DNA from: an uncultured Clostridia bacterium | GTDB taxonomy: Bacteria; Bacillota; Clostridia; Lutisporales; Lutisporaceae | Direction of reading: 5' to 3' | Assembly (NCBI GenBank): GCA_937930535.1 | Contig: CALGKJ010000130.1 | Location: 6,168 to 70,167, forward strand | Length of the DNA stretch: 64,000 nucleotides | Shown: piece after piece, positions 42,906 to 62,100 of the stretch | How the letters are laid out: each line of letters begins with the position of its first letter | Position numbering within the stretch: the stretch's first letter is position 1 | Position numbers and translations under genes: made by a program | Notes under the pieces: generated by a model | The model's database searches: none | What the model was told of the DNA's origin: nothing | Seen by the model: only the letters and a program-made list of their open reading frames with translations

Positions 42906-42935
42906 CCCCTGGCTAATACCCAGGGGTATTTTTTA
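42906..42935 (+). terminator. Rho-independent terminator after aor
   Basis: Stem CCCCTGG / CCAGGGG followed by TATTTTTT. Confidence 0.8.
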
Positions 42936-42992
42936 TTATGAACGTACTATAATAATATAAGAAAAAGCAATTTGCATCAGGGAGGTGATATT

Positions 42993-43217: not shown

Positions 43218-43218
43218 A

Positions 43219-43902
43219 ATGCTGCCCAAAAGATATTCAAGAAATATTGCAACCATTTCTGAGGAAGAGAATCAGAGTATATGCAATAAAAAAGTCTGCG
43301 TAGTGGGCTGTGGAGGTCTTGGAGGATATGTTATAGAAATGCTTGCAAGGCTTGGAATTGGGCACATTATTGCAGTAGACGGAGATGTTTTTGAGGAATC
43401 CAACCTGAATAGACAAATATTATCGGATGTTGAATCCTTGGGAATTAAAAAGGCTTTGGCTGCAAGGGAACGTATTAAGAAGGTAAATCCATTGGTGCAG
43501 GTGGAGGCCATAACAAAAAGGCTTACTGCTGAAAATGCAAAACAAATAATTGATAACGCTGATGTAGTAGTGGATGCACTGGACAGTATAGAAACACGAC
43601 TTCTATTGGAAGCCTTTTGTCAGGAGCTTGAAATTCCTCTAGTGCATGGTGCTATAGCAGGCTGGTATGGTCAGGTTTGTACTGTTTTGCCTGGGGAACG
43701 GACTCTAAGTCGTTTTTACAAAGATAAAAGCTTAAGCGGAGTAGAAAAAAAGCTGGGTAATCCATCCTTTACGCCAGCATTGATTGCATCTATGCAGGTC
43801 AGTGAAGTCTTAAAGCTTCTTATAAAAAGGGGAGACTTATTAAATAAAAAGATACTTCTTATAGATCTGCTGAGACATGAATATGACATTATAGACTTTT
43901 AA
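43219..43902 (+). CDS. ThiF/MoeB/HesA-family E1-like adenylyltransferase
   Basis: Nucleotide-binding motif VVGCGGLGG, then DGDVFEESNLNRQ. 227 aa, paired with the MoaD-like gene. Confidence 0.85.
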   Translation: MLPKRYSRNIATISEEENQSICNKKVCVVGCGGLGGYVIEMLARLGIGHIIAVDGDVFEESNLNRQILSDVESLGIKKALAARERIKKVNPLVQVEAITKRLTAENAKQIIDNADVVVDALDSIETRLLLEAFCQELEIPLVHGAIAGWYGQVCTVLPGERTLSRFYKDKSLSGVEKKLGNPSFTPALIASMQVSEVLKLLIKRGDLLNKKILLIDLLRHEYDIIDF

Positions 43903-44032: not shown

Positions 44033-44983
44033 CTCTATAACCCATTTATTAACATTATCATACTATAGGGTTTTTGACTTAAAACTTAAATTATACCAAG
44101 CTAAAAACCTAGAAGGGGAGCAATAACTAACCCATGAATAAGTTAAGTTTTATGGTTGATTCCCTATAATAGTGAATAATTATAAAAGACATGTTGCGAC
44201 CCATGGGCCTTGCGACAGTTGTATAAAATACTTAGGTATAAGTGAGTTTTTAATAAAATGTAAGTAGAATAAAAATGACAGTTTGCATAGCATACAGCAG
44301 TGCATTGAGTATGTTGTATACTTGAGCAGGATGTGACGTGCAAATCAACTAATTAATTATAGAAACTAATTACAATAATGCATTGTAGATTTCGACAAAA
44401 TGCACAAAAATGTAGCAAGTTAATATTGACATCTGTTTTTTGGTATAATATACTATCATAAATGTTAATGTTTTCCGAGTGTTATTTTTTATTGTAAATA
44501 CAAGTAATAAAGAAAATAAAATGTTATGACTAATTACTAAAATATGATATAATAAGACTCAGGTTATTTTCACTTAAAACTATAATTTGATTTCGACAAA
44601 ACCGATTTAATAAAGTATGTATAACAAAAAAAATGTTCTGTATAGTTAGTGAAGTTTGTGGATATATAGTGTAAGACAAATTAACAGTTTGTGGTTGTAA
44701 ACAAACTATAAGTTTATTTTGACATATTTGCTGCCATATCTTGATGTTGACAATATGTGAAGTATAAATATGAAAAAGTGTAGTTAAGCAGCTGATTATT
44801 TGCAGGCTCAAAAAAATTGACCATAGAAATGGAGGTGAACTGTATCGCATAATCATATGCAAATAAATCAAACTTAAGATAATGAATCAGGTGAAATTAT
44901 GCTAACCTATAAAACAGTCAGCATCAAGTAGATATAATTACAATGAATTTTAAATCAATGTAGTATTAGTAAGGGAGAGTTAT

Positions 44984-45721
44984 ATGAAGAATTACAAAAA
45001 ATTAATTATTATCATACCTGTAGTTATAATAGTATCAATAGTTGCGTTTTTAGCTTTTTTTATAGTCCAGGAAAATATTGAATATCGAAAGATGACGCCA
45101 TTAAACACACAAGAAATAATACCAGATGTATATGCAGTTAATAATGGAAACGTTAATCTTTATTTGATTAAGAACAATGAGGGATATATAGCTATTGATG
45201 CTGGTTCAAGTCCTAATGTAACTAAAAGGGAATTGGATAAGCTGGGAATCAACCCTGATGATGTAACGATGGTATTTTTAACCCATACAGATATGGATCA
45301 TGTAGCTTCTGTAAAGCTTTTTAAAAATGCCAAGATTTATATTTCAGAAGAAGAAAAGCAAATGATAACTGGTGAGACCAAACGTAAACTAATATTTGGT
45401 AATAAACTGGATTGTGAATACAGTACATTAAAGGATGGGGAAAAAATAAATTCTTCCAATACGGAAATACAATGCATATTAACACCGGGACATACTATAG
45501 GATCCGCATGCTACATAGTAAACGGAGAGTTGCTTTTTTCAGGAGATACTATAAGCTTAAAGGTTGGAACAGTAGACACATTTAATAAACCGCTGAACAT
45601 GGATACTGAAGCTCAAAAGGATAGTATCAATAAGCTTAAGCAGTTGACAAACATAAAATATATTTTCACAGGTCATTACGGTTATTCCGATAATTTCGAA
45701 AAGGCTTTTAAAGAAAATTAG
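44984..45721 (+). CDS. Membrane-anchored metallo-beta-lactamase-fold hydrolase
   Basis: N-terminal TM helix (LIIIIPVVIIVSIVAFLAFFIV). MBL motif region FLTHTDMDHV reads H-x-D-x-D-H instead of H-x-H-x-D-H. Later His residues are in TPGHT and TGHYG. Confidence 0.75.
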   Translation: MKNYKKLIIIIPVVIIVSIVAFLAFFIVQENIEYRKMTPLNTQEIIPDVYAVNNGNVNLYLIKNNEGYIAIDAGSSPNVTKRELDKLGINPDDVTMVFLTHTDMDHVASVKLFKNAKIYISEEEKQMITGETKRKLIFGNKLDCEYSTLKDGEKINSSNTEIQCILTPGHTIGSACYIVNGELLFSGDTISLKVGTVDTFNKPLNMDTEAQKDSINKLKQLTNIKYIFTGHYGYSDNFEKAFKEN

Positions 45722-45754
45722 CATTTTAATAATTCCATTATTAGTAATTGAACA

Positions 45755-45801
45755 TTAAGATTACATTACAAATAATGGAATTATTTGTAATGTAATCTTA
45801 A
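45755..45801. repeat. Perfect 22-bp-arm palindrome (TTAAGATTACATTACAAATAAT-GGA-ATTATTTGTAATGTAATCTTAA)
   Basis: I checked the arms base by base. It lies between the MBL and acyltransferase genes, and no U-tract follows. Confidence 0.85.
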
Positions 45802-45960
45802 TCTATATCACAAATGCAATTATTTATTTCGTTTGTACAATAAGTGTTTTAAGTATAAGTATTATTATTCAGTGATGGGTTTGCTTTGAAGAAGCGCATA
45901 GCAGTTCAAAGTTTATATGTTTTTCTTAAATAACAATAATCTAAATCAGAGGTGAAGAAT

Positions 45961-47226
45961 ATGAAATTAGCAATGTTATTTCCAGGCCAAGGTTCTCAAT
46001 ATGTAGGAATGGGAAAAGCCTTATGTGATCAATTTGATGTTGCACAAAGGACTTTTCAGGAAGCAAATGAAGCTTTGAATTTTGATATTCAAAAGCTGTG
46101 CTTTGAAGGAAGCATGGATGAACTAACAAAAACAGAAAACAGTCAGCCGGCTATTTTAACAGCCAGTGTTGCTGCTTTCAGAGTATATATGCAGGAAATA
46201 GGTGTTGCTCCGCATATTTTAGCAGGACATAGCTTAGGAGAGTATTCGGCTTTAGTATGTACAAACAGTATTGAATTTGCTGATGCCGTTAAAGTTGTTA
46301 GGCAAAGAGGTCTATTTATGCAGACTGCTGTTCCGGTAGGAATGGGGGCTATGGCAGCAATCAGTGGTTTGGATATAGAAACTGTCGAAAAGGAATGTAA
46401 CAAATACTCAGCCAGCGGCGATAATATCGCAAGTGTGTCTAATTACAATGCTAAAGACCAGATTGTTATCTCGGGTCATAAGCCAGCAGTTGAAGCACTA
46501 AGTGAGACCTTCGGCAAAATGGGTGCAACAGTTATTCCTTTAAAAGTAAGTGCACCATTCCACTGCTCATTAATGAAACCCGCAGCAGACAATTTGAGGC
46601 TGGAGCTGGAAAAATACACTTATAAAGATTTTACATATCCGGTAATTTCAAATGTTGAGGCTGTTCCTTATACAAGTAAGGATACAATAGTTGATATTCT
46701 AACCAAACAGGTGGTAGATGCTGTAAGATGGCATGAATCAATGAAATATCTGGCTGGCTTGGATATAGATTTTGCAATCGAAATGGGACCCAAAAATGTA
46801 TTGAAGAATCTGATGAAGAAAAATCTTAAGGAACTGACTGCTTATACATTTGACAGAGAAGATGATAAGAAAATGATAAGAAATAGACTTGCTGTCAAAG
46901 AAAACAGCAGTAACGGCGACGATAAGTTTATGGCTGTAATAACAAGATGCATGGCTGTTGCGGTATGTACTAAAAACAGTAACTGGAATAATGATGAATA
47001 TAATAGCGGCGTAATTGAACCATATAGATACATAAAACAAATGCAGATGAGCATGGAAAAGGATGGTATTAAGCCAACTAAAGAACAGGCTGAGGAAGCC
47101 ATTGATATGCTTAAATCTGTGTTTAAAACAAAAGGAACACCTAACGAGGAGCGAATTAAGAGATTTAATCAAATATTAGATGAAACTAACACAATAGAAT
47201 TTTTTGAAAGCATCATAACAGCATAA
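45961..47226 (+). CDS. Discrete malonyl-CoA:ACP transacylase-like acyltransferase with a ~115-aa C-terminal extension
   Basis: GQGSQYVGMG, active-site GHSLGEYSA, SAPFH. The FabD-like core ends around residue 300, followed by a helical extension. ATG 45961 follows GAGGTG. Confidence 0.88.
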   Translation: MKLAMLFPGQGSQYVGMGKALCDQFDVAQRTFQEANEALNFDIQKLCFEGSMDELTKTENSQPAILTASVAAFRVYMQEIGVAPHILAGHSLGEYSALVCTNSIEFADAVKVVRQRGLFMQTAVPVGMGAMAAISGLDIETVEKECNKYSASGDNIASVSNYNAKDQIVISGHKPAVEALSETFGKMGATVIPLKVSAPFHCSLMKPAADNLRLELEKYTYKDFTYPVISNVEAVPYTSKDTIVDILTKQVVDAVRWHESMKYLAGLDIDFAIEMGPKNVLKNLMKKNLKELTAYTFDREDDKKMIRNRLAVKENSSNGDDKFMAVITRCMAVAVCTKNSNWNNDEYNSGVIEPYRYIKQMQMSMEKDGIKPTKEQAEEAIDMLKSVFKTKGTPNEERIKRFNQILDETNTIEFFESIITA

Positions 47227-47248
47227 TATTTGCGATGGAGAAGTGATT

Positions 47249-47944
47249 ATGAAAAAAATAAAACTATTTTGCTTGCCTTATGCAGGTGGAACAGCAGCAA
47301 TCTATAATAAATGGAAAAAATCCGTTAACAAGCATATAGAGGTATGTCCCATTGAATTGCCAGGCAGAGGGAAGCGGTTTATCGAGCCTCTATTTCATAA
47401 TATGTCAGACGCTGTTGATGATATTTTTCATAGTGTAAGAAACTATTTAGATGTTCAGCCATATGCCTTTTTTGGTTATAGTATGGGAAGCTGGCTGGCT
47501 TATGAGGTTATACGAAAAGCACTAAAGGCAGGCTACAGACCTCCAGTACATGCATTCTTTGCTGCAAAGGATGCACCTTCTGTAGTTCGTGATAAGGTAA
47601 AAATGCATTTGCTTGAACATGATGAGTTTGTTAATAGAATTTTAAAGCTCGGAGGCACTCCAGAAGGGATATTTGAAAATGACGAGCTGATGGAGATATT
47701 TGTTAATATACTAAGAACCGACTATGAGGTTGTGGAAACCTATAAGCATTGTGCCGCTGATAATAAAATAAACTGCAATATATCAGTTTTATATGGTGCA
47801 AAGGACAGCTATCCAGAGGAGGATGTAAAAGCTTGGACTGATATTACTAGCGGAAATTGCAGCTTTACCAGTTTTGATGACGGACATTTCTTTATTAATA
47901 ATTATCAGGATAAAATAATAAATATTGTAAACACAATGTTATAG
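47249..47944 (+). CDS. Type II (editing) thioesterase
   Basis: LFCLPYAGG N-terminus, nucleophile motif GYSMGS, C-terminal His in DDGHFF. About 230 aa. Confidence 0.88.
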   Translation: MKKIKLFCLPYAGGTAAIYNKWKKSVNKHIEVCPIELPGRGKRFIEPLFHNMSDAVDDIFHSVRNYLDVQPYAFFGYSMGSWLAYEVIRKALKAGYRPPVHAFFAAKDAPSVVRDKVKMHLLEHDEFVNRILKLGGTPEGIFENDELMEIFVNILRTDYEVVETYKHCAADNKINCNISVLYGAKDSYPEEDVKAWTDITSGNCSFTSFDDGHFFINNYQDKIINIVNTML

Positions 47945-48231: not shown

Positions 48232-51200
48232 ATGATCAAGCACAAGAACCTTATCGAAGCATTAGAGGGAGCACGAAAAGAGACAGAAAAAGGAATACGG
48301 TTTATTAATGGCGATAAGGACAGTACATTTGTTACTTATGAAGAATTATATCAAAATTCACTCATCATTTTAGGCTATTTGCAATCAATTGGAATAGAGC
48401 ATGGTTCTGAATTAGTATTTCAGATACAGGATAATGATCATACAATCTATATGTTTTGGGCTTGTCTTCTTGGCGGCTTTATACCAGTGCCTGTAGCAGT
48501 AGGAAATAATGATGAACACAGACTTAAACTGTTTAAAATATGGAGCTATCTAAATAATCCATATTTAGTTATAGATGCAAAGTCGCTCTCAGCATTAACT
48601 GTATACGGTAAAGAAAACAATTTAGAAAGTCAAATGGAAACAATGAAAAACAAGACTATCTATATTGAGAGTGTTTTCAACAAAAACTCAATCATTGTAA
48701 CATCAAATCAAGGCGTTATTCATATGCCGGAACCGGGCAGTATTGCCTTCATTCAATTTTCTTCTGGCTCAACAGGAGACCCAAAGGGCGTTATATTAAC
48801 TCATGAAAATCTGATAGCAAACATAATGGGGATAGTTATAGCTACAGAAACAACTAGCGACGATTCATTCTTATCTTGGATGCCTCTTACACATGACATG
48901 GGAATGATAGGTTTTCACTTAGTACCCTTAGCATTGCATATAAATCAATATCTGATTCCCACAAAACTATTTGTAAGACACCCAACCTTATGGTTAAAAG
49001 CGGTTAATGAATTTAGAGCGACATTAATAAGCTCACCAAACTTTGGCTATAGCTACCTGTTATCTCATTTTTCACAAGAAATTGCTAAAGACTGGGATTT
49101 ATCATGTGTCAGACTACTTGTTAATGGTGCAGAGCCTATTTCATATGAGCTATGTAACCAGTTCTTAGATGAAATGCTCAAATATGGTCTAAAAAGAACA
49201 AGTATGTTTACAGTATATGGTATGGCAGAAGCCTGTGTTGGAGTTGCTATGCCCCACTTAGGTCATGAATTTAAGACTGTAATGGTAGACCGAAACCATC
49301 TAGGCATTGGCGAACGTATAATAGAAATGAGTGCAGAAGATGCTAATGTTGTCGGTTTTGTCGAGGAAGGATATGCAATTGATTATTGCAGCCTTAGAAT
49401 ATGTGATGAAAAGGATAATGTTGTAGAAGACAGGGTTGTGGGTCAAATACAGATAAAGGGAGAAAACGTTACAAGGGGATATTATAATAATCCGGCGGCT
49501 ACGGAGAAAATCATTACAAAGGACGGATGGCTCAGAACTGGAGATCTTGCCTTTTTGCGTGATGGAAGTCTGGTGGTAACAGGAAGGCTTAAGGATATAA
49601 TCTTTGTTAATGGTCAGAACTTTTACCCCCATGATATTGAACGAGTATTGGAAGAGATTGAAGGCTTGGAAACAGGCAGAGTAGTAGCAGCAGGAGCTTT
49701 CAATAATGAAACTAAAGAAGAGGAAATTATAATATTTGTTTTATACAAAAAGAAGCTGGAAGATTTCTTGCCTTTAGCTTCACGTATTAAGTTACTTCTA
49801 AAAGAAAAAATTGGTCTATTTATCAGACATGTTGTTCCAATTAAGAAAGTACCAAAAACAACCAGTGGAAAGGTGCAAAGATACAAGCTGGCTGATATGT
49901 ATCAAGGAGGTAGCTTTTCAGAAGAGCTAAGCAAAATTGAGGAACTGAAAGCAGAAATTGCAGCTACGGAAAATAATGCTTTAACATATAGCGATACAGA
50001 GGAATTGGTTATTAAGCTGTGTAGAGATACCTTTAAAAATAATAATATTGATATTAATGGAAGCTTTGTTGAGCTGGGTATAAACTCACTGAAGCTTACT
50101 TCATTAGCATCAGCTATACACGAGCATCTGAATGTAGAAATTCCCTTAAAGGACATGTTTCAGATCTCAACCGTAAGGGAATTGGCAGAGTACATTTCAG
50201 ATTATCATGAGCAGAGTATATATTCATCTATTGAAGCGGTTGCAGGAAACCCTGAACATCCACAAGGCTGCTTTGAAGCATCCTCGGCACAGAAGAGGCT
50301 TTATGTAATAGATCAGATAGATACTGATACAATAGGGCCTAATACCGGCTATAATATGCCGGAAGCACTGCTTATTGAAGGTGAGCTGGATATAGCTGCA
50401 ATGGAGCAGGCATTTCGTACACTAATAAAAAGACATGAATCCCTGAGAACATCCTTTACAACTATAGACGGTGAACCTATTCAGAGAATTCATGATAATG
50501 TAGATTTCAAAATAAGCTGCTTTAAGACTACAGAGGATAAAGTAAATGATATCATGAGAGACTTTATCCGACCATTTACAATGGATGTTCCACCGCTTTT
50601 CAGAGTTGCTTTAATAGAAATAGCAGCTAATAAATATGTACTTGTACTGGACATGCATCACATCATATCTGATGGCTGGTCCGTAATGGTGCTGATAAAG
50701 GAGTTATTGCTGCTGCTTGAGGGGGAAAGTCTTCCTGATTTAGAGATTCAATACAAGGATTTTGCAGTATGGCAAAACAAGCTTTTTAAGTCGGATGAAA
50801 TGCAAAAGAAGGAAGAATACTGGCTGAAAAGGTTTGAAGTAAAGGATGGCGGTAAGCTGCCAGTACTAAACATTCCTACTGATTTTCCAAGACCTTCAAA
50901 TAAGTCCTATGAAGGCGACCGATTGGTAATAACAACCGGCAGAGAGCTGATTGATGCACTTAATAAAGTTGCAGAAATTACATCAAGTACTTTGCACATG
51001 GTAATGCTTGCAGCCTATACTATACTTCTTTCAAAATATTCGGGTCAGGAGGATATTATAGTAGGCTCGCCCATAGCTGGAAGACCTCACAAGGACTTAC
51101 AAGACATTATAGGAATGTTTATAAATATGTTAGCCAATAGAAATACTCCAAGACGTGATATGACCTTTAAAGATTTCCTAGCTGAGGTAAAAGAGAACTG

Positions 51201-51621
51201 CTTGAATACATATCAAAATCAGGAATATCAGTTTGATGAGCTTGTAAGCAAGCTTAAGGTAAAGCGAGACATGAGCAGAAATCCGTTGTTTGACTATGTT
51301 TTTGCGGTTCAAAATCTTGATATACCAGATATGCAAAATAGCAAAATATCAGTAAGACCATATGATTTTGCCTACAATATTTCAAGATTCGATATGTTCC
51401 TTTCTGTAATGGAAATGGGTGACAGTGTTAGATTCTTGCTTGAGTATTCAACTGCACTTTTCAAGAAAACAACAGCAGAGAGAATTATTAAGCACTACAT
51501 GGAAATCCTGGAACAAATCAAGGATAACGTAAATATTAGACTTGAAGATATAGTACTTAGTCATAACCTATCAACAGCTAAAAGCAATATTTTAAAATCA
51601 GATGATGATTTTGATTTTTAA
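48232..51621 (+). CDS. Lipoinitiation module: fatty acyl-AMP ligase (FAAL) - carrier protein - condensation domain
   Basis: FAAL-type motifs FSSGSTGDPKGV, WMPLTHDMGMIG, GYYNNPAAT, TGDLAF, TTSGKVQR. Carrier motif LGINSL. C-domain motifs SSAQKRLYV and HHIISDGWS. The C-terminal tail is NILKSDDDFDF. Confidence 0.9.
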   Translation: MIKHKNLIEALEGARKETEKGIRFINGDKDSTFVTYEELYQNSLIILGYLQSIGIEHGSELVFQIQDNDHTIYMFWACLLGGFIPVPVAVGNNDEHRLKLFKIWSYLNNPYLVIDAKSLSALTVYGKENNLESQMETMKNKTIYIESVFNKNSIIVTSNQGVIHMPEPGSIAFIQFSSGSTGDPKGVILTHENLIANIMGIVIATETTSDDSFLSWMPLTHDMGMIGFHLVPLALHINQYLIPTKLFVRHPTLWLKAVNEFRATLISSPNFGYSYLLSHFSQEIAKDWDLSCVRLLVNGAEPISYELCNQFLDEMLKYGLKRTSMFTVYGMAEACVGVAMPHLGHEFKTVMVDRNHLGIGERIIEMSAEDANVVGFVEEGYAIDYCSLRICDEKDNVVEDRVVGQIQIKGENVTRGYYNNPAATEKIITKDGWLRTGDLAFLRDGSLVVTGRLKDIIFVNGQNFYPHDIERVLEEIEGLETGRVVAAGAFNNETKEEEIIIFVLYKKKLEDFLPLASRIKLLLKEKIGLFIRHVVPIKKVPKTTSGKVQRYKLADMYQGGSFSEELSKIEELKAEIAATENNALTYSDTEELVIKLCRDTFKNNNIDINGSFVELGINSLKLTSLASAIHEHLNVEIPLKDMFQISTVRELAEYISDYHEQSIYSSIEAVAGNPEHPQGCFEASSAQKRLYVIDQIDTDTIGPNTGYNMPEALLIEGELDIAAMEQAFRTLIKRHESLRTSFTTIDGEPIQRIHDNVDFKISCFKTTEDKVNDIMRDFIRPFTMDVPPLFRVALIEIAANKYVLVLDMHHIISDGWSVMVLIKELLLLLEGESLPDLEIQYKDFAVWQNKLFKSDEMQKKEEYWLKRFEVKDGGKLPVLNIPTDFPRPSNKSYEGDRLVITTGRELIDALNKVAEITSSTLHMVMLAAYTILLSKYSGQEDIIVGSPIAGRPHKDLQDIIGMFINMLANRNTPRRDMTFKDFLAEVKENCLNTYQNQEYQFDELVSKLKVKRDMSRNPLFDYVFAVQNLDIPDMQNSKISVRPYDFAYNISRFDMFLSVMEMGDSVRFLLEYSTALFKKTTAERIIKHYMEILEQIKDNVNIRLEDIVLSHNLSTAKSNILKSDDDFDF

Positions 51622-51683
51622 GCTTTGCAGTCAAAGGATATGAGATTATGACACCTCAAATATTCTAATTTATGGAGGTAATT

Positions 51684-53402
51684 ATGGAAATTAAAAATGT
51701 TTCACAAAAAAAGGATGAAAAAGCTCTAAAGGTTGTTCTGGGGATGATGCCCTACTGGACTCCTTTAAATCCACCCCAAGGAATAGGTATGCTAAAGGCA
51801 TATTTGCAGAAGTTTGGGTATAAGGTAAAGATTCTTGACCTTAATGTTCATGAAACCTTTAAGAAGGTTTACGTAGACTATTTTAAAAAGCTGGAAGAGT
51901 TTGTGCCTCCAGAGAAAAGAGGTAATTTCTATAATATCGGACATGATGTACTGCATAACCATATGATGGCAGCCTTCAAGTACACAGATGAAAATAAGTA
52001 CATAGAGCTGGTAAAAATATTAATATATCATACATATTATGTAAACATCAACAATGATCAAGCAAAAGAATTAAATGCGTTAATGAGCTTTTTCTACAAG
52101 GAATTAGAAGCATATTATACTAATCTGGTTGAAACAGAGAAGCCTGATGTTGTAGGATTCAGTATATTTAAAGGTAATATACCTGCTTCAATATTTGCTG
52201 CAAGAGTTGTAAAAAAACTGAATTCACAAATTAAGGTAGTTATGGGTGGAGGAGCTTTTGCTGATTCACATGCTGTAGGTTCACCAAATTACGATACACT
52301 TCTTAAGGAAACTGAAGACTGTGTAGATTTAATAATGAGAGATGGTCAAGGGGAGCAATCCTTATTAAAATTCTTGAGAGGCGAGATATCTGATAGGAGA
52401 GTTGTTTCCCTCAGTGACTTAGGGTTAACTCCAATACCTTTTAACCAGTTAGATATAGCAGATTTATCAGATATTAATACAGCAAGCTATCCATATATAA
52501 TAGCAACAGGTTCTTCAAGCTGTCCTAATGAATGCAGCTTCTGTAACTCATCAAGATATTGGGGCAAGTATAAAACAAAGGATATAAAACAGACAGTAAG
52601 CGAAATGATAAAGATGTATAAGAAATATGGAAACCAGTTATTCTTTATGTCTGATGCGCTGTTAAATCCAATAATCAGCGAGCTTTCTGCTGAATTTATA
52701 AATTCAGACTATACATTGTATTATGACTGCTATTTTAGAGTAGACGAGCCATCTGGAAACCTGGACAATACTATCCAGTGGAGACGTGGTGGTATGTATA
52801 GAACCAGAATAGGTGTAGAAAGCGGTTCTCAAAAGATACTTGATTTAATGCACAAGGAAATAAAGGTAGAGCAAACCAAGGAAACACTATATGCTTTGGC
52901 TACTGCGGGAATAAAAACCACAACGTATATAGTTATCGGACATCCAGACGAGACAGAGGAAGATTTCCAAATGACCCTTGATCTAGTTGAGGAGATGAAG
53001 GATTATATCTGGCAGGCTGAACCAAATCCTTTCTACTATCATTATGCAGGTCAGTTTGATTCAGATCAATGGGCAGATAAGAGAGAACTGCTTTATCCGG
53101 CAGAGGCTAGAGATATGCTGGTATTTGATACATGGACATTAAAATGCGAGCCTATGAGAGAAGAAAGATATAACAGATTACATCGTTTTATGGCTCACTG
53201 TGCTAAGCTTGGCATACCAAATCCATATAATGCTACTCAGCTGCACAATGCGGATGAAAGATGGAAGAAGCTTCATAAGAATGCAGTACCATCAATATGG
53301 GAATTCGAAAGATGGGGCAAAATGGTGCATGAAGCTAAGCAAATCGTAAAATTAGCTGGTGCAAAGAATATTTTAAGTAATGATGATGACTTCGGTTTTT
53401 AA
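51684..53402 (+). CDS. Stand-alone B12-binding-domain radical SAM enzyme (class B-like)
   Basis: N-terminal cobalamin-binding-like Rossmann segment. The CPNECSFC cluster (CxxxCxxC) is at 52521-52544. GGAGGT precedes ATG 51684. The C-terminal tail is NILSNDDDFGF. Confidence 0.85.
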   Translation: MEIKNVSQKKDEKALKVVLGMMPYWTPLNPPQGIGMLKAYLQKFGYKVKILDLNVHETFKKVYVDYFKKLEEFVPPEKRGNFYNIGHDVLHNHMMAAFKYTDENKYIELVKILIYHTYYVNINNDQAKELNALMSFFYKELEAYYTNLVETEKPDVVGFSIFKGNIPASIFAARVVKKLNSQIKVVMGGGAFADSHAVGSPNYDTLLKETEDCVDLIMRDGQGEQSLLKFLRGEISDRRVVSLSDLGLTPIPFNQLDIADLSDINTASYPYIIATGSSSCPNECSFCNSSRYWGKYKTKDIKQTVSEMIKMYKKYGNQLFFMSDALLNPIISELSAEFINSDYTLYYDCYFRVDEPSGNLDNTIQWRRGGMYRTRIGVESGSQKILDLMHKEIKVEQTKETLYALATAGIKTTTYIVIGHPDETEEDFQMTLDLVEEMKDYIWQAEPNPFYYHYAGQFDSDQWADKRELLYPAEARDMLVFDTWTLKCEPMREERYNRLHRFMAHCAKLGIPNPYNATQLHNADERWKKLHKNAVPSIWEFERWGKMVHEAKQIVKLAGAKNILSNDDDFGF

Positions 53403-53464: not shown

Positions 53465-56400
53465 ATGAATAAATCTGGCATAGCAGCAATAGCTGCGAGT
53501 CAACATGTAAAAGAAGGCGAATATTGGTTAAATAAACTATCAGGTGAGCTTGTAAAAAGCTTCTTCCCATATGATCACAATGTTACTGATACAAATAAAT
53601 ACAAAACAGTAACAGCCAAAGCCAGCTTTGAGCTTTCAGGAGAAATATATTCAAAGCTGTCAAAGCTAAGCAATGGTGCAGACGCAAGACTATTTATGAT
53701 TTTAGTAACCGGCATCAGCTTACTGCTGGACAGATATACAGGAAACAGTGACGTAGTTATTGGCGCACCAATATTTAAGCAGGAAGAAGAAGCGGAATTC
53801 GTAAATACAGTGCTTGCCTTAAGAAATGAAATTAAGAGAGATGGTTCCTTTAAGGATTTGCTGCTTCAAGTAAAGGATACAATTTTTGAAGCCTCCGAAA
53901 ATCAAAACTATCCTATGGAAACACTACTGTACCAGTTGGGTATGGAACAGGAAGAAAACAGCTTCCCATTATTTGAGGTAGTAGTATTATTAGAAAATGT
54001 ACATAACAAAAGCTATATAAGCAATATTATGACAAGCATAGTAATGTCCTTTAATAATACAAAAGACGTTATTAAGGGTGAAATAGAATACAATACGTCC
54101 TTATATGAAGCTGAAACCATCGAAAGAATAATAACACATTTTAAGAATCTGCTTTTATGCGGAGTAAGCAATGTTAATGCCAAGCTTTCTGAGCTTACTA
54201 TGCTTCCAGAAGAAGAAAAGCAGCTTATACTAAATAGCTTTAATAACAGTGCAGTACCTTATCCAAAGGAAAAAACCATATCCGGGCTATTTGAAGAGCA
54301 GGTTAAGCTGACACCGGAATGCATGGCTGTACAATTTGAAGGTGAAGCACTTACATATGCTGAGCTTAATAAGAAAGCAAACAGCCTTGCAAGAATATTG
54401 AGAGAGCATGGTGTAGGAACCTCAGAAGGCAACAATATTGTTGCAATTATGGTTGACAGATCCCTTGAAATGGTAGTTGGCATGATGGCGATACTTAAGG
54501 CTGGCGGAGCTTATCTTCCAGTTGATCCAGAGTATCCTGCTGAAAGAAAGCAGTTTATGCTGAAGGATAGTGATGTAAAGGTTCTGCTAATAAAGGGTGC
54601 AGTTAATGAAGAAATAGAGTTTGAAGGCACTATAATAGACTTAGAAAAAGAAAAAAATTACCTAGGAAATTCTGAAAACCTAGAAACAATTTCTTCAGAT
54701 TCATTGGCATATATCATATATACATCAGGATCAACAGGGCAGCCAAAGGGTGTACTTGTAAAGCACACTACTATTGTTAATACACTGACATGGAGAAAGG
54801 ACTACTATCAATTTACTGATAAGGATGCTGTACTGCAAATTCCTTCCTTCTCCTTTGACAGTTCAGTTGAAGATATATTTACACCACTTATAAGCGGTTC
54901 AAAGCTGGTACTTGTAAATAACCAGAACAGATTTAACGTTGCATATCTGCAAGAGGTTGTTACTGACTGCAAGGTAACACACTTCCTGATTACTCCTGGT
55001 TTATACAAGGTATTTATGGATGAGTATCCAGAAAGCTTAAAGTATCTGAGAATCATAACTGTAGCTGGAGATAAGTTTAACGAAGATTTGGTTAAAGAGC
55101 ACTTTGAGAAGCTTAATAACGTTAGATTTATTAATGAGTATGGGCCGACAGAAAACAGCGTTTGCTCAACGGTTTACGAAATTACACCAGAAAATATGAA
55201 GGTACTTATTGGTAAACCAATAAATAATGTAAAATGCTATATCGTTGATAAATACGGCTGCTTATGCCCAGTAGGGATACCCGGCGAGCTATGCGTATCG
55301 GGGACAGGCTTGGCAGTAGGATACCTAAACAGACCAGAGCTGACAAGTGAAAAGTTTATTAATAACCCATATGCAGAGGGCGAGAGGTTATATAAAACTG
55401 GTGACCTTGCAAGATGGCTGCCAGATGGAAATATAGAATTTTTAGGCAGAATAGATCATCAAGTAAAAATCAGAGGCTTTAGAATAGAGCTTGGTGAAAT
55501 CGAAAACCAATTGTTAACTCATGAACAGGTAAAAGAAACCCTAGTAATAGCTAAAGAAAATTGTGACGGCACAAAATATCTTGTTCAATACTTTACAGCC
55601 AATGAAAAGCTGACTGTACCTGAGCTTAGATGGTGTCTGGCAGACGCTCTTCCAGAGTACATGATTCCAGCTCATTTTGTACAGTTAGACAAAATGCCAT
55701 TGACTCCAAATGGAAAGATTGACAGACGAGCTCTTCCAGAACCAGAAGAAAATCTGGACTCATCAGCTATATATGAGGAGCCAACCAACGAAACAGAAGA
55801 AGAGCTTGTAACAGTATGGAAGGAAATACTTGACCTGGAAAAGGTAGGTATAAACGATAATTTCTTTGAAGTAGGCGGACACTCTCTTAGAGCAACTATA
55901 CTGGTTTCACAAATAAGAAAGAGATTCCATGTTGATGTGCCATTAAGAGAAATATTCAGAAAGCCAACAATAAAACAGCTGGCAAAGTTCATAGATCGTG
56001 GAGAAAAGAATATCTATATATCCATTCAGCCAGTTGAGAAGAAGGAATACTATCCAGCATCTCCAGCACAAAAGAGAATGTATCTGGTTAACAAGGTGGA
56101 TGGTATAGGGGTTACATATAACGTACCATTGGCTATGCATATTGACAAACATCTGGATAAGGAAAGAACTCAGAATGCTTTTGCTGAAATAGTAAAAAGA
56201 CATGAGGCCTTTAGAACCTCCTTTGACTTTGTTGAGGATGAATTAGTACAAAGAGTACATGATGAAGTAAATTTTGAAATAGATTACATGGAAGCTGAAG
56301 AAAATCAGGTTAACAAAATAGCTGAAAGCTTTGTACGTACCTTTGATTTCAAAGCAGCACCACTTCTCAGAGTTATGCTAATAAACCTGAAGGAAGGCAA

Positions 56401-59188
56401 AAGCATCCTAATGACAGATATGCACCACATAATATCTGATGGTGTGTCAATGGATATATTGGTTAAAGAGTTTGTTACATTATATGAAAATAAAGAACTG
56501 CCTGAGCTTAGAATCCAATACAGAGACTTTACTGCATGGCAGAATACAATGATAAACAGCGATGCAATGAAAGAGCAAAAGGAATTCTGGTTAAGGGAAT
56601 TCGCAGGAGAGCTTCCAGTGCTTAATATGCCAACTGATTATCCAAGACCGGCAGTACAAAGCTTTGAAGGAGACAAGGTAAGAGTAAAGGTAGATGAAGA
56701 AACTACCACTGCATTATTAGGACTAGCTAATAAGACAGGTACAACCTTATTCTCAGTAATGCTAGGAGCATACAATGTATTGCTGTCCAAGTACTCAGGA
56801 CAGGATGATATAGTTGTTGGTACTCCTATAGCCGGCAGAACCAGCACGGACTTAGAAAATGTAATAGGTATGTTTATCAATATGCTTGCATTACGAAACT
56901 ACCCAGAAAGCACCAGGAGCTTTAGGGATTTCTTAAAGGATGTAGGAGAAAATTCAATAAGAGCATTTGAAAATCAGGATTATCAATTTAACGATTTAGT
57001 TGATGCTTTACGTCCAGACAGAAATATGAGCAGAAGTCCTCTATTTGATACAATGTTTGCACTTCAAAATATGGAGTTCAGACAAACAGAGATAGATGGC
57101 ATCAGATTTGGTCTGGAAGATGTTGAAACAAAAATCTCCAAGTTTGATATAACAACTATTGCTATAGAAAGAAATAATCAGATAGATTTAATATTTGAAT
57201 ACTGCACAAAGCTGTTCAAAAAAGAAACCATGGAAAGATTTGCTAATCATTATGTGAAGCTGTTAAAAGAAGCTGTTAATAACCCAGATAATAAACTATA
57301 TGAGCTTCAAATGATTTCAGAATGTGAACAAAAGCAAATACTAAACAGCTTCAATAACAATAAAGTAGAATATGATAAAACCAGAACGATACAAAGCCTG
57401 TTTGAAGAGCAAGCAGCTAAAACTCCTGACAATGTCGTTGCAGTATATAAAGATAAGTCCATGACCTACAAGGAAATGAACGAAAAGGCTAATCAGCTTG
57501 CTGCTGCATTAAGAAACAATAAAATCAATACTAATGATATAGTAGGCATAATGGTTGAAGAGTCCTTGGAGATGCTAGTAGGAATAATGGGTATCTTAAA
57601 GGCAGGAGCGGCATATCTGCCCATAGATCCTCAATACCCGCAGGATAGAATCAAATACATGCTGGAAGACAGCAAAGCAGTAATGCTGCTTACACAAGAG
57701 CATTTGCTTGAGCAGGTTAAATATGAAGTCAAGATAATAAATCTTGACAGTTCAGAAGCATATGCAGCAAATAAAGAAAATGTGACATGTGAAAGCAAGG
57801 CGGATGATATAGCATATGTAATATATACCTCTGGTTCTACAGGAAAGCCTAAGGGAGTTATGGTGGAGCACAAGGCTCTTGCAAATCTATGTCAGTGGCA
57901 CAATAAATACTATGAGGTTACTGCTGAAGATAGAGCAACAAAATATGCAGGTTTTGGCTTCGATGCTTCTGTTTGGGAAATATTCCCTTACCTAATATGC
58001 GGAGCATCAATCCACTTAATAGACAAGAAGATTAAGCTGGATACTATTAAGCTTAATGAGTACTTTGAGAAAAACAATATAACCATAAGCTTTTTACCGA
58101 CACAAATATGCGAGCAGTTTATGGATTTAAACAATACCTCCCTAAGAAAGCTTTTGACTGGCGGAGATAAGCTGAATCAATTTACAAAGAAAGCCTATGA
58201 GTTGATAAACAACTACGGTCCAACTGAAAACACTGTTGTAGCTACAAGCTTCGTAGTAGATGAATATTACAGTAATATTCCTATAGGAAAGCCAATAACA
58301 AATACAGAAGCTTATGTACTGGATAAATACAACAACTTACAGCCAGTTGGAGTACCGGGAGAATTATGCATAAGCGGTGACAGTCTGGCAAGAGGATATC
58401 TGAATAAACCAGAGTTAACAAAAGAAAAATTTGTAGAAAACCCATTTGAAGCAAACACACTGATGTATCGTACAGGAGACCTTGTAAAGTGGCTGCCTGA
58501 TGGCAATATAGAATTCCTTGGCAGAATAGATTATCAAGTAAAAATCAGAGGCAACAGAATAGAGCTGGGTGAAATAGAAAATCAACTGCTTAAGCATGAA
58601 GACATTAAAGAAGCTGTAGTAATAGCAAGAGACGACAAAGGCGAAAACAAATACCTCTGTGCTTACTTAGTTACTGAAAAGGAAATGACCGTAGCAGATA
58701 TAAAGGAACATCTGTCAAAAGAGCTTCCTGAATATATGATTCCATCATATTTTGTTCAGGTAGACCAAATACCAATGACCTCAAACGGCAAGGTAGATAA
58801 GAAAGCACTGCCTGAGCCAGATGGAAGCATAAGTACAGGCGTTGAATATGCAGCACCAACAAGTGAAACAGAAGAAAAGCTTGTTGCAATATGGCAGGAG
58901 GTACTAGGAGTTGAAAAGATAGGTACTAACGACAACTTCTTTGACCTTGGCGGTAACTCGCTGCTTATGATGAAGGTAATAAGCAAGATCTGTACTCTGT
59001 TTAATGCATCAGAAGAGGAAATTACAGTTATGACAATGTTTAAATATCCTACTATAGCACTTATGGCTAAGCAGTTGGACGGAGAATCTGCTGTTGATAA
59101 GAGTTCCTTTGAACAAATCTCCAGCAGAATCGAAAGGAGAAACCAAGCTGCAAGAAGACCTACAAGCGGGAGGGGCAGAAATGAGTAA
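53465..59188 (+). CDS. Bimodular NRPS: [C-terminal half of a C domain]-A-T-C-A-T
   Basis: Two A domains (YTSGSTGQPKGV / YTSGSTGKPKGV, NEYGPTEN / NNYGPTEN, GELCVSG / GELCISG, KIRGFRIELGEIE / KIRGNRIELGEIE). Carrier motifs GGHSL and GGNSL. One full C domain (HHIISDGVS). The N-terminal ~245 aa match only the post-His half of a C domain. ATG 53465 follows GGAGGG. Confidence 0.92.
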   Translation: MNKSGIAAIAASQHVKEGEYWLNKLSGELVKSFFPYDHNVTDTNKYKTVTAKASFELSGEIYSKLSKLSNGADARLFMILVTGISLLLDRYTGNSDVVIGAPIFKQEEEAEFVNTVLALRNEIKRDGSFKDLLLQVKDTIFEASENQNYPMETLLYQLGMEQEENSFPLFEVVVLLENVHNKSYISNIMTSIVMSFNNTKDVIKGEIEYNTSLYEAETIERIITHFKNLLLCGVSNVNAKLSELTMLPEEEKQLILNSFNNSAVPYPKEKTISGLFEEQVKLTPECMAVQFEGEALTYAELNKKANSLARILREHGVGTSEGNNIVAIMVDRSLEMVVGMMAILKAGGAYLPVDPEYPAERKQFMLKDSDVKVLLIKGAVNEEIEFEGTIIDLEKEKNYLGNSENLETISSDSLAYIIYTSGSTGQPKGVLVKHTTIVNTLTWRKDYYQFTDKDAVLQIPSFSFDSSVEDIFTPLISGSKLVLVNNQNRFNVAYLQEVVTDCKVTHFLITPGLYKVFMDEYPESLKYLRIITVAGDKFNEDLVKEHFEKLNNVRFINEYGPTENSVCSTVYEITPENMKVLIGKPINNVKCYIVDKYGCLCPVGIPGELCVSGTGLAVGYLNRPELTSEKFINNPYAEGERLYKTGDLARWLPDGNIEFLGRIDHQVKIRGFRIELGEIENQLLTHEQVKETLVIAKENCDGTKYLVQYFTANEKLTVPELRWCLADALPEYMIPAHFVQLDKMPLTPNGKIDRRALPEPEENLDSSAIYEEPTNETEEELVTVWKEILDLEKVGINDNFFEVGGHSLRATILVSQIRKRFHVDVPLREIFRKPTIKQLAKFIDRGEKNIYISIQPVEKKEYYPASPAQKRMYLVNKVDGIGVTYNVPLAMHIDKHLDKERTQNAFAEIVKRHEAFRTSFDFVEDELVQRVHDEVNFEIDYMEAEENQVNKIAESFVRTFDFKAAPLLRVMLINLKEGKSILMTDMHHIISDGVSMDILVKEFVTLYENKELPELRIQYRDFTAWQNTMINSDAMKEQKEFWLREFAGELPVLNMPTDYPRPAVQSFEGDKVRVKVDEETTTALLGLANKTGTTLFSVMLGAYNVLLSKYSGQDDIVVGTPIAGRTSTDLENVIGMFINMLALRNYPESTRSFRDFLKDVGENSIRAFENQDYQFNDLVDALRPDRNMSRSPLFDTMFALQNMEFRQTEIDGIRFGLEDVETKISKFDITTIAIERNNQIDLIFEYCTKLFKKETMERFANHYVKLLKEAVNNPDNKLYELQMISECEQKQILNSFNNNKVEYDKTRTIQSLFEEQAAKTPDNVVAVYKDKSMTYKEMNEKANQLAAALRNNKINTNDIVGIMVEESLEMLVGIMGILKAGAAYLPIDPQYPQDRIKYMLEDSKAVMLLTQEHLLEQVKYEVKIINLDSSEAYAANKENVTCESKADDIAYVIYTSGSTGKPKGVMVEHKALANLCQWHNKYYEVTAEDRATKYAGFGFDASVWEIFPYLICGASIHLIDKKIKLDTIKLNEYFEKNNITISFLPTQICEQFMDLNNTSLRKLLTGGDKLNQFTKKAYELINNYGPTENTVVATSFVVDEYYSNIPIGKPITNTEAYVLDKYNNLQPVGVPGELCISGDSLARGYLNKPELTKEKFVENPFEANTLMYRTGDLVKWLPDGNIEFLGRIDYQVKIRGNRIELGEIENQLLKHEDIKEAVVIARDDKGENKYLCAYLVTEKEMTVADIKEHLSKELPEYMIPSYFVQVDQIPMTSNGKVDKKALPEPDGSISTGVEYAAPTSETEEKLVAIWQEVLGVEKIGTNDNFFDLGGNSLLMMKVISKICTLFNASEEEITVMTMFKYPTIALMAKQLDGESAVDKSSFEQISSRIERRNQAARRPTSGRGRNE

Positions 59189-62100
59189 CGACAACACTCA
59201 AAATTTTGGCGATAATATAGCAATTATCAGTCTGGCTGGAAGATTTCCGGGGGCTGACAGCATAAATGAGTTTTGGAATAATATTAAAAACGGTGTTGAG
59301 TCAATACAATTCTTCACAGATGAAGAATTGAAGAAATCCAATATAGAACCGGCTTTATTTAATGATTCCAACTATGTAAAGGCTGGAGCTGTAATTGAAG
59401 ACATAGACATGTTTGATCCACAGTTCTTTGGCTTTAATAAAAGAGAAGCAGAAATACTAAACCCACAGCACCGTATGTTTCTTGAATGTGCTTGGGAAGC
59501 CATCGAAAGTGCAGGCTATAATCCAGAAACATATAATGGCAGGATAGGAGTTTACGCAGGTGAAGGCTTTAATACCTATCTGCTGAACATTGCATCAGAC
59601 CCGCATTTAGCAAGTACAATGAACGAAATACAGATGCTTATAGGTAATGATAAGGACTTTCTGGCAACACAGGTGTCCTATAAGCTTAACCTGAAAGGAC
59701 CAGGCGTTACCGTTCAATGCGGCTGCTCAACCTCCCTTGTTGCATTGACAATGGCATGTCAGGGACTAAACAGCTATCAATGTGATATGGCACTGGCTGG
59801 GGGCATAAGGCTCGGTATTCCACAGAAGGGAGGCTACCTTTATAAAGAAGGTAGCATCCTGTCCCCTGATGGGCACTGTAAGCCCTTTGACGAAAAGGCC
59901 AATGGCACAGTAGGCGGAAACGGAGCTGCTATAGTAGCCTTAAAGAGACTTGAGGATGCTTTGGCGGACGGAGACTACATATATGCCGTAATAAAGGGAA
60001 CAGCAATTAATAATGATGGTTCCCTGAAAATAGGTTACACCGCCCCCAGTATTGAGGGACAGTCTGAGGTTATATATGAAGCACAAGAGGTAGCTGGCAT
60101 AAACCCTGAAAATATAGAATATATCGAAACCCATGGAACAGGTACAGAGTTGGGTGATCCAATAGAGTTTAACGCTTTAACAGAGGTATATAGAAATAAA
60201 ACCAGCAAAAAAAGATTTTGTGCTCTAGGTTCAGTTAAAGCCAATATCGGACATTTGGATGCCGCCGCTGGAACTGCCGGAGTAATAAAAGCAGCACTGA
60301 CTCTTAAAAATAAGACAATACCTCCATGTGTAAATTTTGAAAAGCCAAACCCAAAGCTTAAGATGGAAGATAGTCCATTTTATGTACCAACAGAAGCTCT
60401 TGCGTGGAAAAGCGAAGGAAAGCCTCGCAGAGCAGGAGTAAGCTCCTTTGGTATAGGGGGTACAAATGCCCATGTAGTGCTTGAAGAAGCACCAGAAATA
60501 CAAAGTACAGTATCCAATAAGCCTTGGCATATGCTTACACTATCTGCAAAAACAGAGAACGCTTTAGATAATATGACTATTAATTTACTGGAATTCTTGA
60601 GAAACAACCCAGAGACTAATCTTGCAGATGCGGCACACACCTTGCAAATGGGCAGAAAAGAGTTTAACCATAGAAAAGCTGTCGTTTGTAATAACATAGC
60701 AGATGCGGTAGAAGTAATGGAAAAATCCTTTAATGAACGTATAGTAAAAGGCAGCGGAGAAGTAACTGGAAGAGGCGTAGTATTCATGTTCCCAGGTCAA
60801 GGCTCTCAATATATCAACATGGGACTGGAATTGTATAAAAATGAGAAAATATTTAAAGAACAGGTAGATTTATGTGCCAAGCTGTTAGAACCCCATCTGG
60901 GATTGGATCTGCGTGAGGTTTTATTTCCAAATGATCAGGAAGCAGATGCAGAGCAGATAAATCAAACCTATCTGGCACAGCCAGCGTTGTTTACCATGGA
61001 ATATGCAATGGCACAAACACTAATAAGCTATGGCATAGTACCAAAGGCTATGGTAGGACATAGTGTTGGTGAATATGTAGCGGCATGTATATCTGGTGTC
61101 ATTACCCTAAAGGAAGTACTGCCCTTAATCGCTGCAAGAGGCAGAATGATGCAGGGACAGCCTCGTGGAGTTATGACAGCAGTATCAGAATGTGAAAAAG
61201 AAGTGCTGCCGCTGCTTAATGAAGATGTATCTATTGCTGCTGTTAACAGCCCTATGTCCTGTGTAATATCAGGACCAGAGGAAAAGGTATCAGAGGTTGA
61301 AGCAGTATTGGAGCAAAAGGGCGTAAAATACGTAAGGCTGCATACCTCACATGCTTTCCATTCATCTATGATGGATTCCATAATAGAGCCTTTTGCAGCC
61401 AAGGTAGGCAAAGCACAGCTAAATGCACCAAAAATACCAATAGTATCAAACCTGACAGGTACATGGCTGAAGGATGAGGAAGCAAAGGATCCAATTTATT
61501 GGGCTAGACATTTGGCAGAGGCTGTAAGATTCTCTCAATGTCTGGAGGAGCTTTTAAAGGACGACAGCTTGGTATTAATAGAAGCCGGACCAGGAAATAC
61601 ACTTAGTACGCTGGCAAAGCAGCAAATTAATAAGGAATCCAATATAAAAGTAGTACCTACAATGAGGCATCCTCGCCAAAAGAACTCGGACACAGCAGTG
61701 TTATACTGCGCTTTAGGCAAGATGTGGTCAGAAGGCATAAAGGTTAACTTCTCAGAGCTTTATAAGAATGAAAAGAGAATGAGAATACCTCTGCCAACAT
61801 ACCCATTTGAAAGAATAAGCTGCTGGATGGGCGGGGATAGAAAAACACAAAAGCCTGTAGATGCCATAAAAAAAGCAGCTAAGAACCCGGAAGTATCTGA
61901 ATGGCTTTATGCCCCATATTGGAAGCCGGCAGTACCAGTGGAACAAGTTGAGGAAAATAGCTTAAAATGGCTGATATTTGCTGATGAGCATGGAATAGCA
62001 GACAGCGTGGCTTCAAGACTTAATAGCATGGGTAATGAAACAACAATGGTATATGCTGGAGAAAAATATAAAGCTGACGAAAACGATTCATACAGTTTAA

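Follow-up and report, generated by a model that had tools for sequence, protein, structure and literature searches.

The window analysed here is a 64,000-nucleotide stretch of a contig from an uncultured Clostridia bacterium. On its plus strand it carries a gene for a class-B (B12-binding) radical S-adenosylmethionine (SAM) protein of 572 amino acids (aa), at positions 51684..53402, from a family without a name that is associated with nonribosomal peptide synthetases (NRPSs). The list of open reading frames (ORFs) gives the frame as 51672-53402 on the plus strand, with ATG 51684 as the likely start; a Shine-Dalgarno sequence, GGAGG (51674..51678, plus strand), lies 5 nt ahead of this ATG, so the 572-aa product is the likely one. 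A chance ORF is ruled out by homologues at E = 0. Upstream, on the same strand, lies a lipoinitiation synthetase of 1129 aa (48232..51621) composed of a fatty acyl-AMP ligase (FAAL), an acyl carrier protein (ACP) and a full condensation (C) domain with an intact HHIISDG motif. In this protein, Pfam placed AMP-binding at aa 29-418, PP-binding at aa 599-655 and Condensation at aa 681-1111, and the NCBIfam fatty acyl-AMP ligase model scored 334 bits. Downstream, also on the plus strand, is an NRPS gene of 1907 aa (53465..59188, start ATG 53465) that reads halfC-A-T-C-A-T, where A is an adenylation and T a thiolation (carrier) domain, and the second A domain has the code DAWFLGNVV. The first-pass annotation had placed the radical SAM gene between a gene ending in a C domain and the NRPS gene that supplies the first A-T acceptor module. 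This placement was confirmed and the A-T pair is present, but the downstream gene opens with half of a C domain and not with an A domain. The half-C (53465..54232, plus strand) is the C-terminal Condensation lobe, matching positions 190-456 of the 456-position Pfam profile (aa 13-256) without the HHxxxDG lobe; the acceptor module A1-T1 follows it (54266..55999, plus strand), with the specificity code D-S-E-L-T-A-E-V-C. The FAAL-ACP-C, radical SAM and NRPS genes are probably co-transcribed, because no plus-strand terminator-like site separates them between 48232 and 53465.

In agreement with the first-pass annotation, which had described a B12-type radical SAM protein with a CPNECSFC motif, two Pfam families matched above their cut-offs: Radical_SAM (PF04055; aa 279-435, E 8.5e-15, 55.7 bits against 29.5) and B12-binding (PF02310; E 4.1e-10, 40 bits against 32.1). 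The ligands of the radical SAM [4Fe-4S] cluster, C280-P-N-E-C284-S-F-C287 (52521..52544, plus strand), do not vary in the family alignment, and CxxxCxxC is present in 120 of the 120 best homologues. From 30 homologues, AlphaFold2 gave a model with a pLDDT of 89.9 and a pTM of 0.89, which showed a beta-alpha-beta Rossmann-type domain, a radical SAM barrel and a C-terminal domain. The N-terminal Rossmann-type cobalamin-binding domain (about aa 16-240, 51729..52403, plus strand) is delimited by Pfam, by a TIGR03975 stretch at 17-233 and by the model, and contains a helical insert of about 100 aa (aa 57-152) with invariant G80-N81-F82 and H87. The partial TIM-barrel core (about aa 270-449, 52491..53030, plus strand), defined by Pfam, alignment and model, includes an invariant G377-x-E379-x-G381-S382. 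Pfam had no match for aa 433-572, where invariant alignment columns (446-536) mark a family-specific C-terminal domain (about aa 450-535, 53031..53288, plus strand; pLDDT about 90). A poorly conserved linker (aa 536-565) and the tail N-D-D-D-F-G-F-COOH (aa 566-572) complete the protein (53289..53399, plus strand); the last dozen residues are disordered in the model, with a pLDDT of 36-43 at the end.

Searching the model against the PDB with Foldseek gave TsrM, OxsB, MgmA, AprD4, MiaB, TokK and CysS as best matches (E 7e-14 to 2e-8, query TM-score (TMq) 0.45-0.58, 11-16% identity), all of class-B fold except the MiaB methylthiotransferases. Sequence and model thus carry the defining features of cobalamin-type (class B) enzymes, and cobalamin use is predicted; AprD4 has the class-B fold but is not known to use cobalamin. 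By the same evidence the protein has a class-B fold yet makes a separate family. Every curated NCBIfam model scored far below its cut-off, the best being TIGR03975 (101 bits against 281.85), followed by PhpK P-methyltransferase (94.5/600), BchE (73.7/481), the glutamine C-methylase of methyl-coenzyme M reductase (MCR; TIGR04014, 59.4/360), HpnR (47.8/650) and KedN5 (28.4/700). None of the named radical SAM subfamilies was accepted as its identity, since no tested curated cut-off was reached and no name is transferable. Membership in TIGR03975 was likewise rejected: the score is below the cut-off, and the neighbours in the window, as in about 80% of related loci, are NRPS genes, not a precursor of a peptide made on the ribosome and modified after translation (RiPP). 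A PDB sequence search returned weak matches to the core only, the best being MgmA, the MCR glutamine C-methylase (9ccb, E 5.7e-8). In a 90%-identity database the 120 best matches share 46-75% identity with the window protein, and almost all are without a name. That the enzyme is dedicated to secondary metabolism is supported; of the named families, those scored here by hidden Markov models (HMMs) all stayed below cut-off.

In order to place the gene in a wider context, we scanned GTDB species representatives and obtained 77 loci with 88 copies of the radical SAM gene from at least 10 bacterial lineages, whose domains were mapped by tblastn with the window's own domains as queries. The sources were Clostridia, Aminicenantes, Acidobacteriota, Bacteroidales and other Bacteroidota, Omnitrophota, KSB1, Deferrimicrobium, Geobacteraceae and others, and the closest of the species representatives is a Clostridiaceae metagenome-assembled genome (MAG) at 70% identity. 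Among the hosts in culture are Clostridium puniceum DSM 2619, Ruminiclostridium cellobioparum DSM 1351, Wukongibacter sp. M2B1 and Chitinophaga sp. RAB17. Across nearly all loci one order recurs: a synthetase ending in T-C, the radical SAM gene, and a synthetase opening with half-C-A-T. A C domain lay upstream of 63 of the 79 assessable copies and a half-C downstream of 66 of 79, and both were found together for 52 of the copies assessable on both sides; some clusters carry two such cassettes. The FAAL-ACP-C protein is another matter. Among the 88 copies it stands upstream only in the window and in its closest relative, L002, and the usual partner elsewhere is an ordinary A-T-C elongation module. 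The link to lipoinitiation is therefore incidental, and the gene order ties the radical SAM protein to the C/half-C-A junction instead. As for the suggestion that this tailoring logic is uncommon, it appears undescribed but is widespread: of 1.84 billion 50%-identity representatives, 1158 matched the family profile at E<=1e-30, and paralogues are often many per genome, one Aminicenantes MAG having at least 8 and one Clostridia MAG at least 7. A Bacteroidota variant was also seen, in a Saprospiraceae MAG (L044:6147-7802) and in Chitinophaga sp. RAB17 (L052:10001-11677), where a T-ending protein precedes the radical SAM gene and a full C-A-T follows in place of the half-C; in these cassettes both tails end in ..(E/D)F-I-F.

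We further found that the radical SAM protein and the synthetase upstream of it terminate alike. The window proteins end in ...SNDDDFGF (radical SAM) and ...KSDDDFDF (FAAL-ACP-C), the latter containing the proposed docking motif S-D-D-D-F-D-F-COOH (51598..51618, plus strand), and in the loci at large the ending common to the two kinds of protein is (D/E)(D/E)GDFxF-COOH. Counted with the motif [DE]x0-2[FW]x[FLI]-COOH, the tail was present at 54 of 63 junctions from radical SAM to half-C, at 56 of 66 from C to radical SAM, and at 11 of 13 from C to half-C where no radical SAM gene intervenes, the remaining two being near fits. At other inter-protein junctions (T to ketosynthase (KS), T to C, C to A and others) it was found in 0 of about 40. 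Among ORFs of at least 150 aa in the related loci, 150 of 450 on the plus strand carry the tail versus 0 of 320 on the minus strand, and 133 of the 150 have a radical SAM gene or a half-C within the next 400 nt. The 120 best homologues have it in strict form in 103 cases and in loose form in 14. Paired tails within a locus are alike at 3.13 of 7 positions, versus 2.54 +/- 0.09 after shuffling, and 0 of 10000 shuffles reached 3.13. Disordered in the model and set behind a variable linker, the tail resembles a short linear motif of the kind used for docking. On the other side of the junction, the half-C starts at most 70 aa before the YWL motif in 87 of 87 copies (at most 42 aa in 85 of 87), so its N-terminal lobe is truly missing. 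As C/half-C junctions without a radical SAM gene use the same tail, we infer that the receptor must sit in the half-C-A-T protein; the half-C is the parsimonious candidate, and the tail would bind it physically. Other junctions have endings of their own: C-ending proteins before a full A domain end in ..DDLENE(x) (4 of 5), and T-ending proteins before a full C often end in ..K(I/V)x(I)-COOH (NKIII, DKIEI, NKVTI), and these may be further docking codes.

Natural fusions suggest the same partnership. The profile search revealed radical SAM-halfC-A-T in a single polypeptide in P0131 (2077 aa) and P0133 (1377 aa), and in P0126 the radical SAM protein is joined to a full-length C-type domain without HHxxxDG. 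About 25 further representatives (P0160-P0198, about 1100-1230 aa) consist of the radical SAM protein and, behind it, a C-like domain without HHxxxDG; the majority have ..DxFxF at the C-terminus. In the one case examined, P0165 (L079:283-3942), the gene next to this radical SAM-degenerate C-tail protein opens with half-C-A; the fused protein is possibly an adaptor resembling the X domain. Independently, the fusions join the radical SAM protein physically to the downstream module and to C-type scaffolds.

Radical SAM units also occurred in other arrangements. Tandem proteins of 0.9-2.7 kaa (P0154, P0157, P0196, P0204, P0206 and about 40 more) contain two to four more distant B12-radical SAM units, and several of them share recurring C-termini (..IIFPGS, ..LLGGRKK). 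In 17 of 78 related loci, though not in the window, A domains are interrupted by an insert of about 565 aa (L019:12840-14531, L034:5461-7173 and 19 more copies) near window-A1 positions 110-140, which we estimate to lie between core motifs A2 and A3. This insert has the permuted order of Radical_SAM core then B12-binding and is 22% identical to the stand-alone protein. Such A domains were seen both in modules behind a radical SAM gene and half-C and in ordinary C-A-T modules, Clostridium puniceum (L055) being one of the hosts, and in L054 and L062 the insert is placed between A and T. We found no paper on A domains interrupted in this manner. At the same position, L006:5029-5988 has a 320-aa class-I SAM methyltransferase inserted in the A domain.

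To characterize the residue concerned, we took Stachelhaus-type codes by aligning all A domains to window A1; the amino-acid labels given to them are tentative assignments by likeness to published codes. The 51 A domains that follow a radical SAM gene and half-C have diverse codes, for which reason the idea of a single-substrate family was dropped. Gln-like codes number about 11, Asn/Asp about 9, and the Tyr-like DGTITAEVM with its relatives about 8; the window type DSELTAEVC occurs 6 times, and Dab-like (diaminobutyrate), Lys-like, Pro-like and Phe codes are also present. DSELTAEVC(K) is probably the published His code. None of the 51 codes is that of Gly, Ser, Thr, Val, Cys or Leu by these labels, though other modules in these loci commonly have such codes. 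Our analysis revealed that the nearest radical SAM neighbour predicts the downstream A code at 5.12 of 9 positions versus 2.98 +/- 0.29 when shuffled, and that the match still stood at 4.32 versus 2.98 of 9 with near-orthologues (<30% divergent) excluded (z 4.7, 0 of 2000 shuffles). With the same exclusion, the upstream A code was not predicted by radical SAM similarity (z 0.3). The Asp-associated and the Tyr-like radical SAM clades each span different phyla with differing upstream residues. On these correlations the radical SAM protein is coupled to the amino acid of the acceptor module. The codes resemble published ones for unmodified amino acids, which suggests modification after loading as the simplest reading.

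We propose that the radical SAM protein is a trans-acting tailoring enzyme that docks on the acceptor module and modifies the carrier-bound first residue there, C-methylation being the likeliest chemistry, and we put the probability of this reading at roughly 0.6. That the acceptor residue undergoes some carrier-directed radical modification, whatever its kind, we regard as quite likely; methylation at carbon, taken as a separate matter, stands at about even odds. In the proposed sequence of events, the disordered tail (D/E)(D/E)GDFxF-COOH (NDDDFGF in the window) would tether the enzyme to an acceptor synthetase that opens with a half-C lobe, presumably dead catalytically, and continues with A-T, and the upstream FAAL-ACP-C protein would dock on the same partner by its SDDDFDF tail. 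A1 would load its amino acid onto T1. The enzyme would modify the T1-bound residue, and the likeliest way is C-methylation, mediated by methylcobalamin, at an unactivated carbon (C-beta, perhaps C-alpha); the docked C domain would then acylate the residue with the fatty acyl chain. The carrier-bound state of the substrate is predicted, and the modification may precede or follow condensation. Attack at C-beta or C-alpha would fit the target residue types, all of which have a C-alpha-H and a C-beta methylene if the code labels hold. As to methylation, most of the best-scoring NCBIfam families are methyltransferases (the TIGR03975 RiPP C-methyltransferase, PhpK, the MCR Gln C-methylase and HpnR), and sp3 carbons in peptides or proteins are what the nearest HMM families and most characterised class-B enzymes methylate; MgmA, the top PDB match by sequence, belongs here too. 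The first-pass annotation had envisaged on-line action on either the lipid tail or the first residue. The slot, the tail, the fusions and the co-variation with the downstream code favour the first acceptor residue, and the lipid tail found no support, radical SAM clades not tracking the upstream module.

Several points weigh against this proposal. No product or experiment is known for any member of the radical SAM family, and curated family scores lie so far below their cut-offs that the chemistry is not transferable by homology. The link between radical SAM protein and A code could arise from co-inheritance of the radical SAM and halfC-A-T cassette and not from substrate recognition. The last residue of the tail (F versus L/I) showed no convincing covariation with half-C columns, 7 variant tails only being available (best p 0.006 before multiple-test correction). 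At radical SAM junctions two tails face a single half-C, which leaves the stoichiometry and order of binding without explanation, and the copies in L042, L059, L069 and L072 lie outside the usual context or are tail-less. Class B also includes non-methylating enzymes, with OxsB, AprD4 and BchE among the matches here; together with the failure to reach any curated family cut-off, this leaves some room for an enzyme that is recruited to the acceptor as proposed and does something other than methylation. Its 5'-deoxyadenosyl radical, acting with cobalamin or without it, would then bring about another change in the carrier-bound residue, for example O2-independent hydroxylation, desaturation, rearrangement, cyclisation or epimerisation. 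Aerobic NRPSs typically beta-hydroxylate Asp/Asn, Gln, Tyr-like, His-like, Pro-like, Phe, Dab and Lys residues on the carrier, and by the labels given above the downstream residue types coincide with these. We nevertheless consider such chemistry unlikely, as the top HMM matches and most characterised class-B enzymes methylate. Hydroxylation in particular is less likely because a tail-bearing protein of the Peptidase_U32 family, which fills the same slot and sometimes stands alongside the radical SAM protein, seems to hold that role; and epimerisation is at odds with the C domains flanking the radical SAM module, which are mostly LCL-like and not of the type that follows epimerisation (post-E). 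The idea of an epimerase, with a DCL-like C domain before the radical SAM protein, was dropped once 50 of 56 such domains grouped with the ordinary cis type; those after the module fall mostly in the ordinary (LCL-like) cluster, not in the post-E cluster.

The remaining alternatives move the action away from the acceptor residue. Were the substrate the upstream donor, that is, fatty acyl-S-ACP in the window and peptidyl-S-T elsewhere, it would be natural for the gene to follow directly the donor-carrying protein and to have a tail in common with it. We judge this improbable, however, since FAAL-ACP-C is the donor only in the window and its closest relative, the A-T-C modules elsewhere have very diverse codes, radical SAM similarity has no predictive power for them once near-orthologues are left out, and the fusions join the protein to halfC-A-T and not to the upstream module. 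Supply of a precursor, with the free amino acid modified before activation by A1, is how many non-proteinogenic NRPS building blocks generally arise; yet a docking-type tail, halfC-A-T fusions, strict placement by module, a cluster having up to two cassettes, and A codes resembling published ones for unmodified amino acids make it very unlikely here. We give equally little credence to tailoring of the released lipopeptide after assembly. It has a precedent in DscE, which C-methylates a released peptide in vitro (PMC12858407), but a late enzyme would need neither the fixed position between C and half-C, nor a synthetase-type tail, nor fusion to a module, and its copy number and position would not be expected to follow individual modules as they do. 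Finally, a non-catalytic structural adaptor, bridging the synthetases, could sit exactly at the split C/A junction and carry the tail of that junction. This is scarcely credible for a protein whose cluster cysteines, GxExGS motif and dozens of core residues are invariant across phyla at 47-75% identity to the window protein, and the 13 C/half-C junctions without a radical SAM gene work without such a bridge.

The Peptidase_U32-family proteins deserve separate description. They are about 400 aa long (L023:11712-12914, L051:15679-16866, L066:12009-13193, L077:11790-12980), have invariant C189, C193 and C223 and a CxxxCxxCxxC at 322-332, which are cysteine motifs of Fe-S type, and end in a DF(x)F/L tail. 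They precede half-C-A-T, either after the radical SAM gene or directly after a C domain. In three loci such a protein stands beside the radical SAM gene, and because the two co-occur they probably do different things. UbiU/UbiV, TrhP and RlhA, which hydroxylate without O2, belong to the U32 family, and this suggests anaerobic hydroxylation on the carrier by the tail-bearing members. No paper on tail-bearing NRPS U32 proteins was found.

Among known enzymes, CysS (cystobactamid) and TokK/ThnK likewise combine a cobalamin-binding domain with a radical SAM core, and their substrates are tethered through a thioester or pantetheine. CysS carries out tailoring in an NRPS pathway (PMC7966384), and a crystal structure shows it with a pantetheinylated substrate (PDB 9n1c title). 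Its fold matches the window protein at E 2e-8 and TMq 0.47, but CysS and TokK share only 11-13% identity with it and are not encoded at a conserved position between C and A-T, and CysS methylates the alkoxy side chain of an aminobenzoate, not a proteinogenic residue. Enzymes of this type are not known to have a DFxF tail, a partner half-C or fusions to modules. DscE of the discodermin NRPS cluster is a cobalamin radical SAM enzyme that C-methylates amino-acid residues of the released peptide, and its report gives no sign of module-specific placement or docking (PMC12858407). The best HMM and PDB sequence matches, the TIGR03975 family and MgmA, methylate sp3 carbons (C-beta, C-alpha) of amino-acid residues. 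Their substrates, however, are ribosomal peptides or proteins bound through leader or protein recognition, whereas the window protein has an NRPS context, a family-specific C-terminal domain and a tail, and scores far below 281.85 and 360; we take TIGR03975 to be of PoyB/PoyC type.

With regard to recruitment, the X domain of glycopeptide synthetases and the interface (I) domains of beta-hydroxyaspartate siderophore synthetases are dead C-type domains that recruit or position a trans tailoring enzyme in cis. The half-C and the degenerate C domain of P0165 type would fit this logic, being without HHxxxDG and in cis with the module. Enzyme binding is predicted for them, with indirect support in the restriction of the tail to its junctions and in the likeness of paired tails within a locus. 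The half-C differs in that it is the C-terminal lobe only, lies at the protein N-terminus and appears also to dock the upstream synthetase. The enzymes recruited here would be O2-independent (B12-radical SAM and U32-like), in contrast to the P450s or non-haem iron hydroxylases of X and I domains, and recognition seems to go through a short C-terminal linear motif, unlike theirs. In communication-mediating (COM) and beta-hairpin docking domains, a short C-terminal element pairs with an N-terminal element of the next protein. The same would hold here, and the C-terminal acceptor lobe goes with the A domain as in engineered XUC units. Known natural docking pairs sit at E/C or T/C junctions. The split described here is between C and A, with a complete C upstream and an extra C-lobe downstream, and tailoring enzymes would use the same code.

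A broader proposition goes further, and we hold it tentatively, at somewhat less than even odds: that anaerobes and microaerophiles of many phyla share a plug-in NRPS tailoring system based on tail and half-C, in which the window enzyme, as the founding example, would C-methylate a lipopeptide-polyketide at its first, His-like residue. The tail code may be common to the upstream synthetase, the B12-radical SAM protein and, in related clusters, the Fe-S Peptidase_U32-like putative hydroxylases. Apparently new are the conserved slot, a tail that the enzyme has in common with the synthetase upstream, the half-C as its partner, the fusions to modules and the wide spread among anaerobic phyla. In full-text searches the cassette was not found described, although subscription papers were outside their reach and a prior description is possible. 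Aerobic NRPS lines diversify carrier-bound residues with P450s and iron/2-oxoglutarate hydroxylases, which require O2. If the proposed reading is right, the cassette would be the O2-free route of anaerobes to carrier-bound residue chemistry, with cobalamin radical SAM enzymes recruited module by module. Tail and half-C would then form a short, portable recruitment element that could serve the engineering of trans-tailoring or the splitting of synthetases, and in genome mining the family would be a position-specific predictor of modified residues. For the window cluster, the predicted product is a lipopeptide-polyketide whose first residue has an extra carbon or another radical modification.

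The rest of the cluster was mapped as follows. A polyketide synthase (PKS) module with ketosynthase, acyltransferase (AT), ketoreductase (KR) and ACP domains occupies 59094..63764 on the plus strand as mechanically listed, and its true start is probably farther downstream. The cluster probably begins with accessory genes for a metallo-beta-lactamase (MBL)-fold protein, a stand-alone acyltransferase and a type II thioesterase (44984..47944, plus strand), preceded by a promoter-like site at 44426-44454. An Rfam scan of the window found no family at the gathering threshold and hence no cobalamin riboswitch. Directly upstream of the cluster, at 38987-43902, lie genes for a GAF-PAS sigma-54 activator, a tungsten-type aldehyde:ferredoxin oxidoreductase and a ThiF/MoeB-like protein, which are typical of a strict anaerobe. 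The GC content of the window, taken per 2 kb, is 29-42%.

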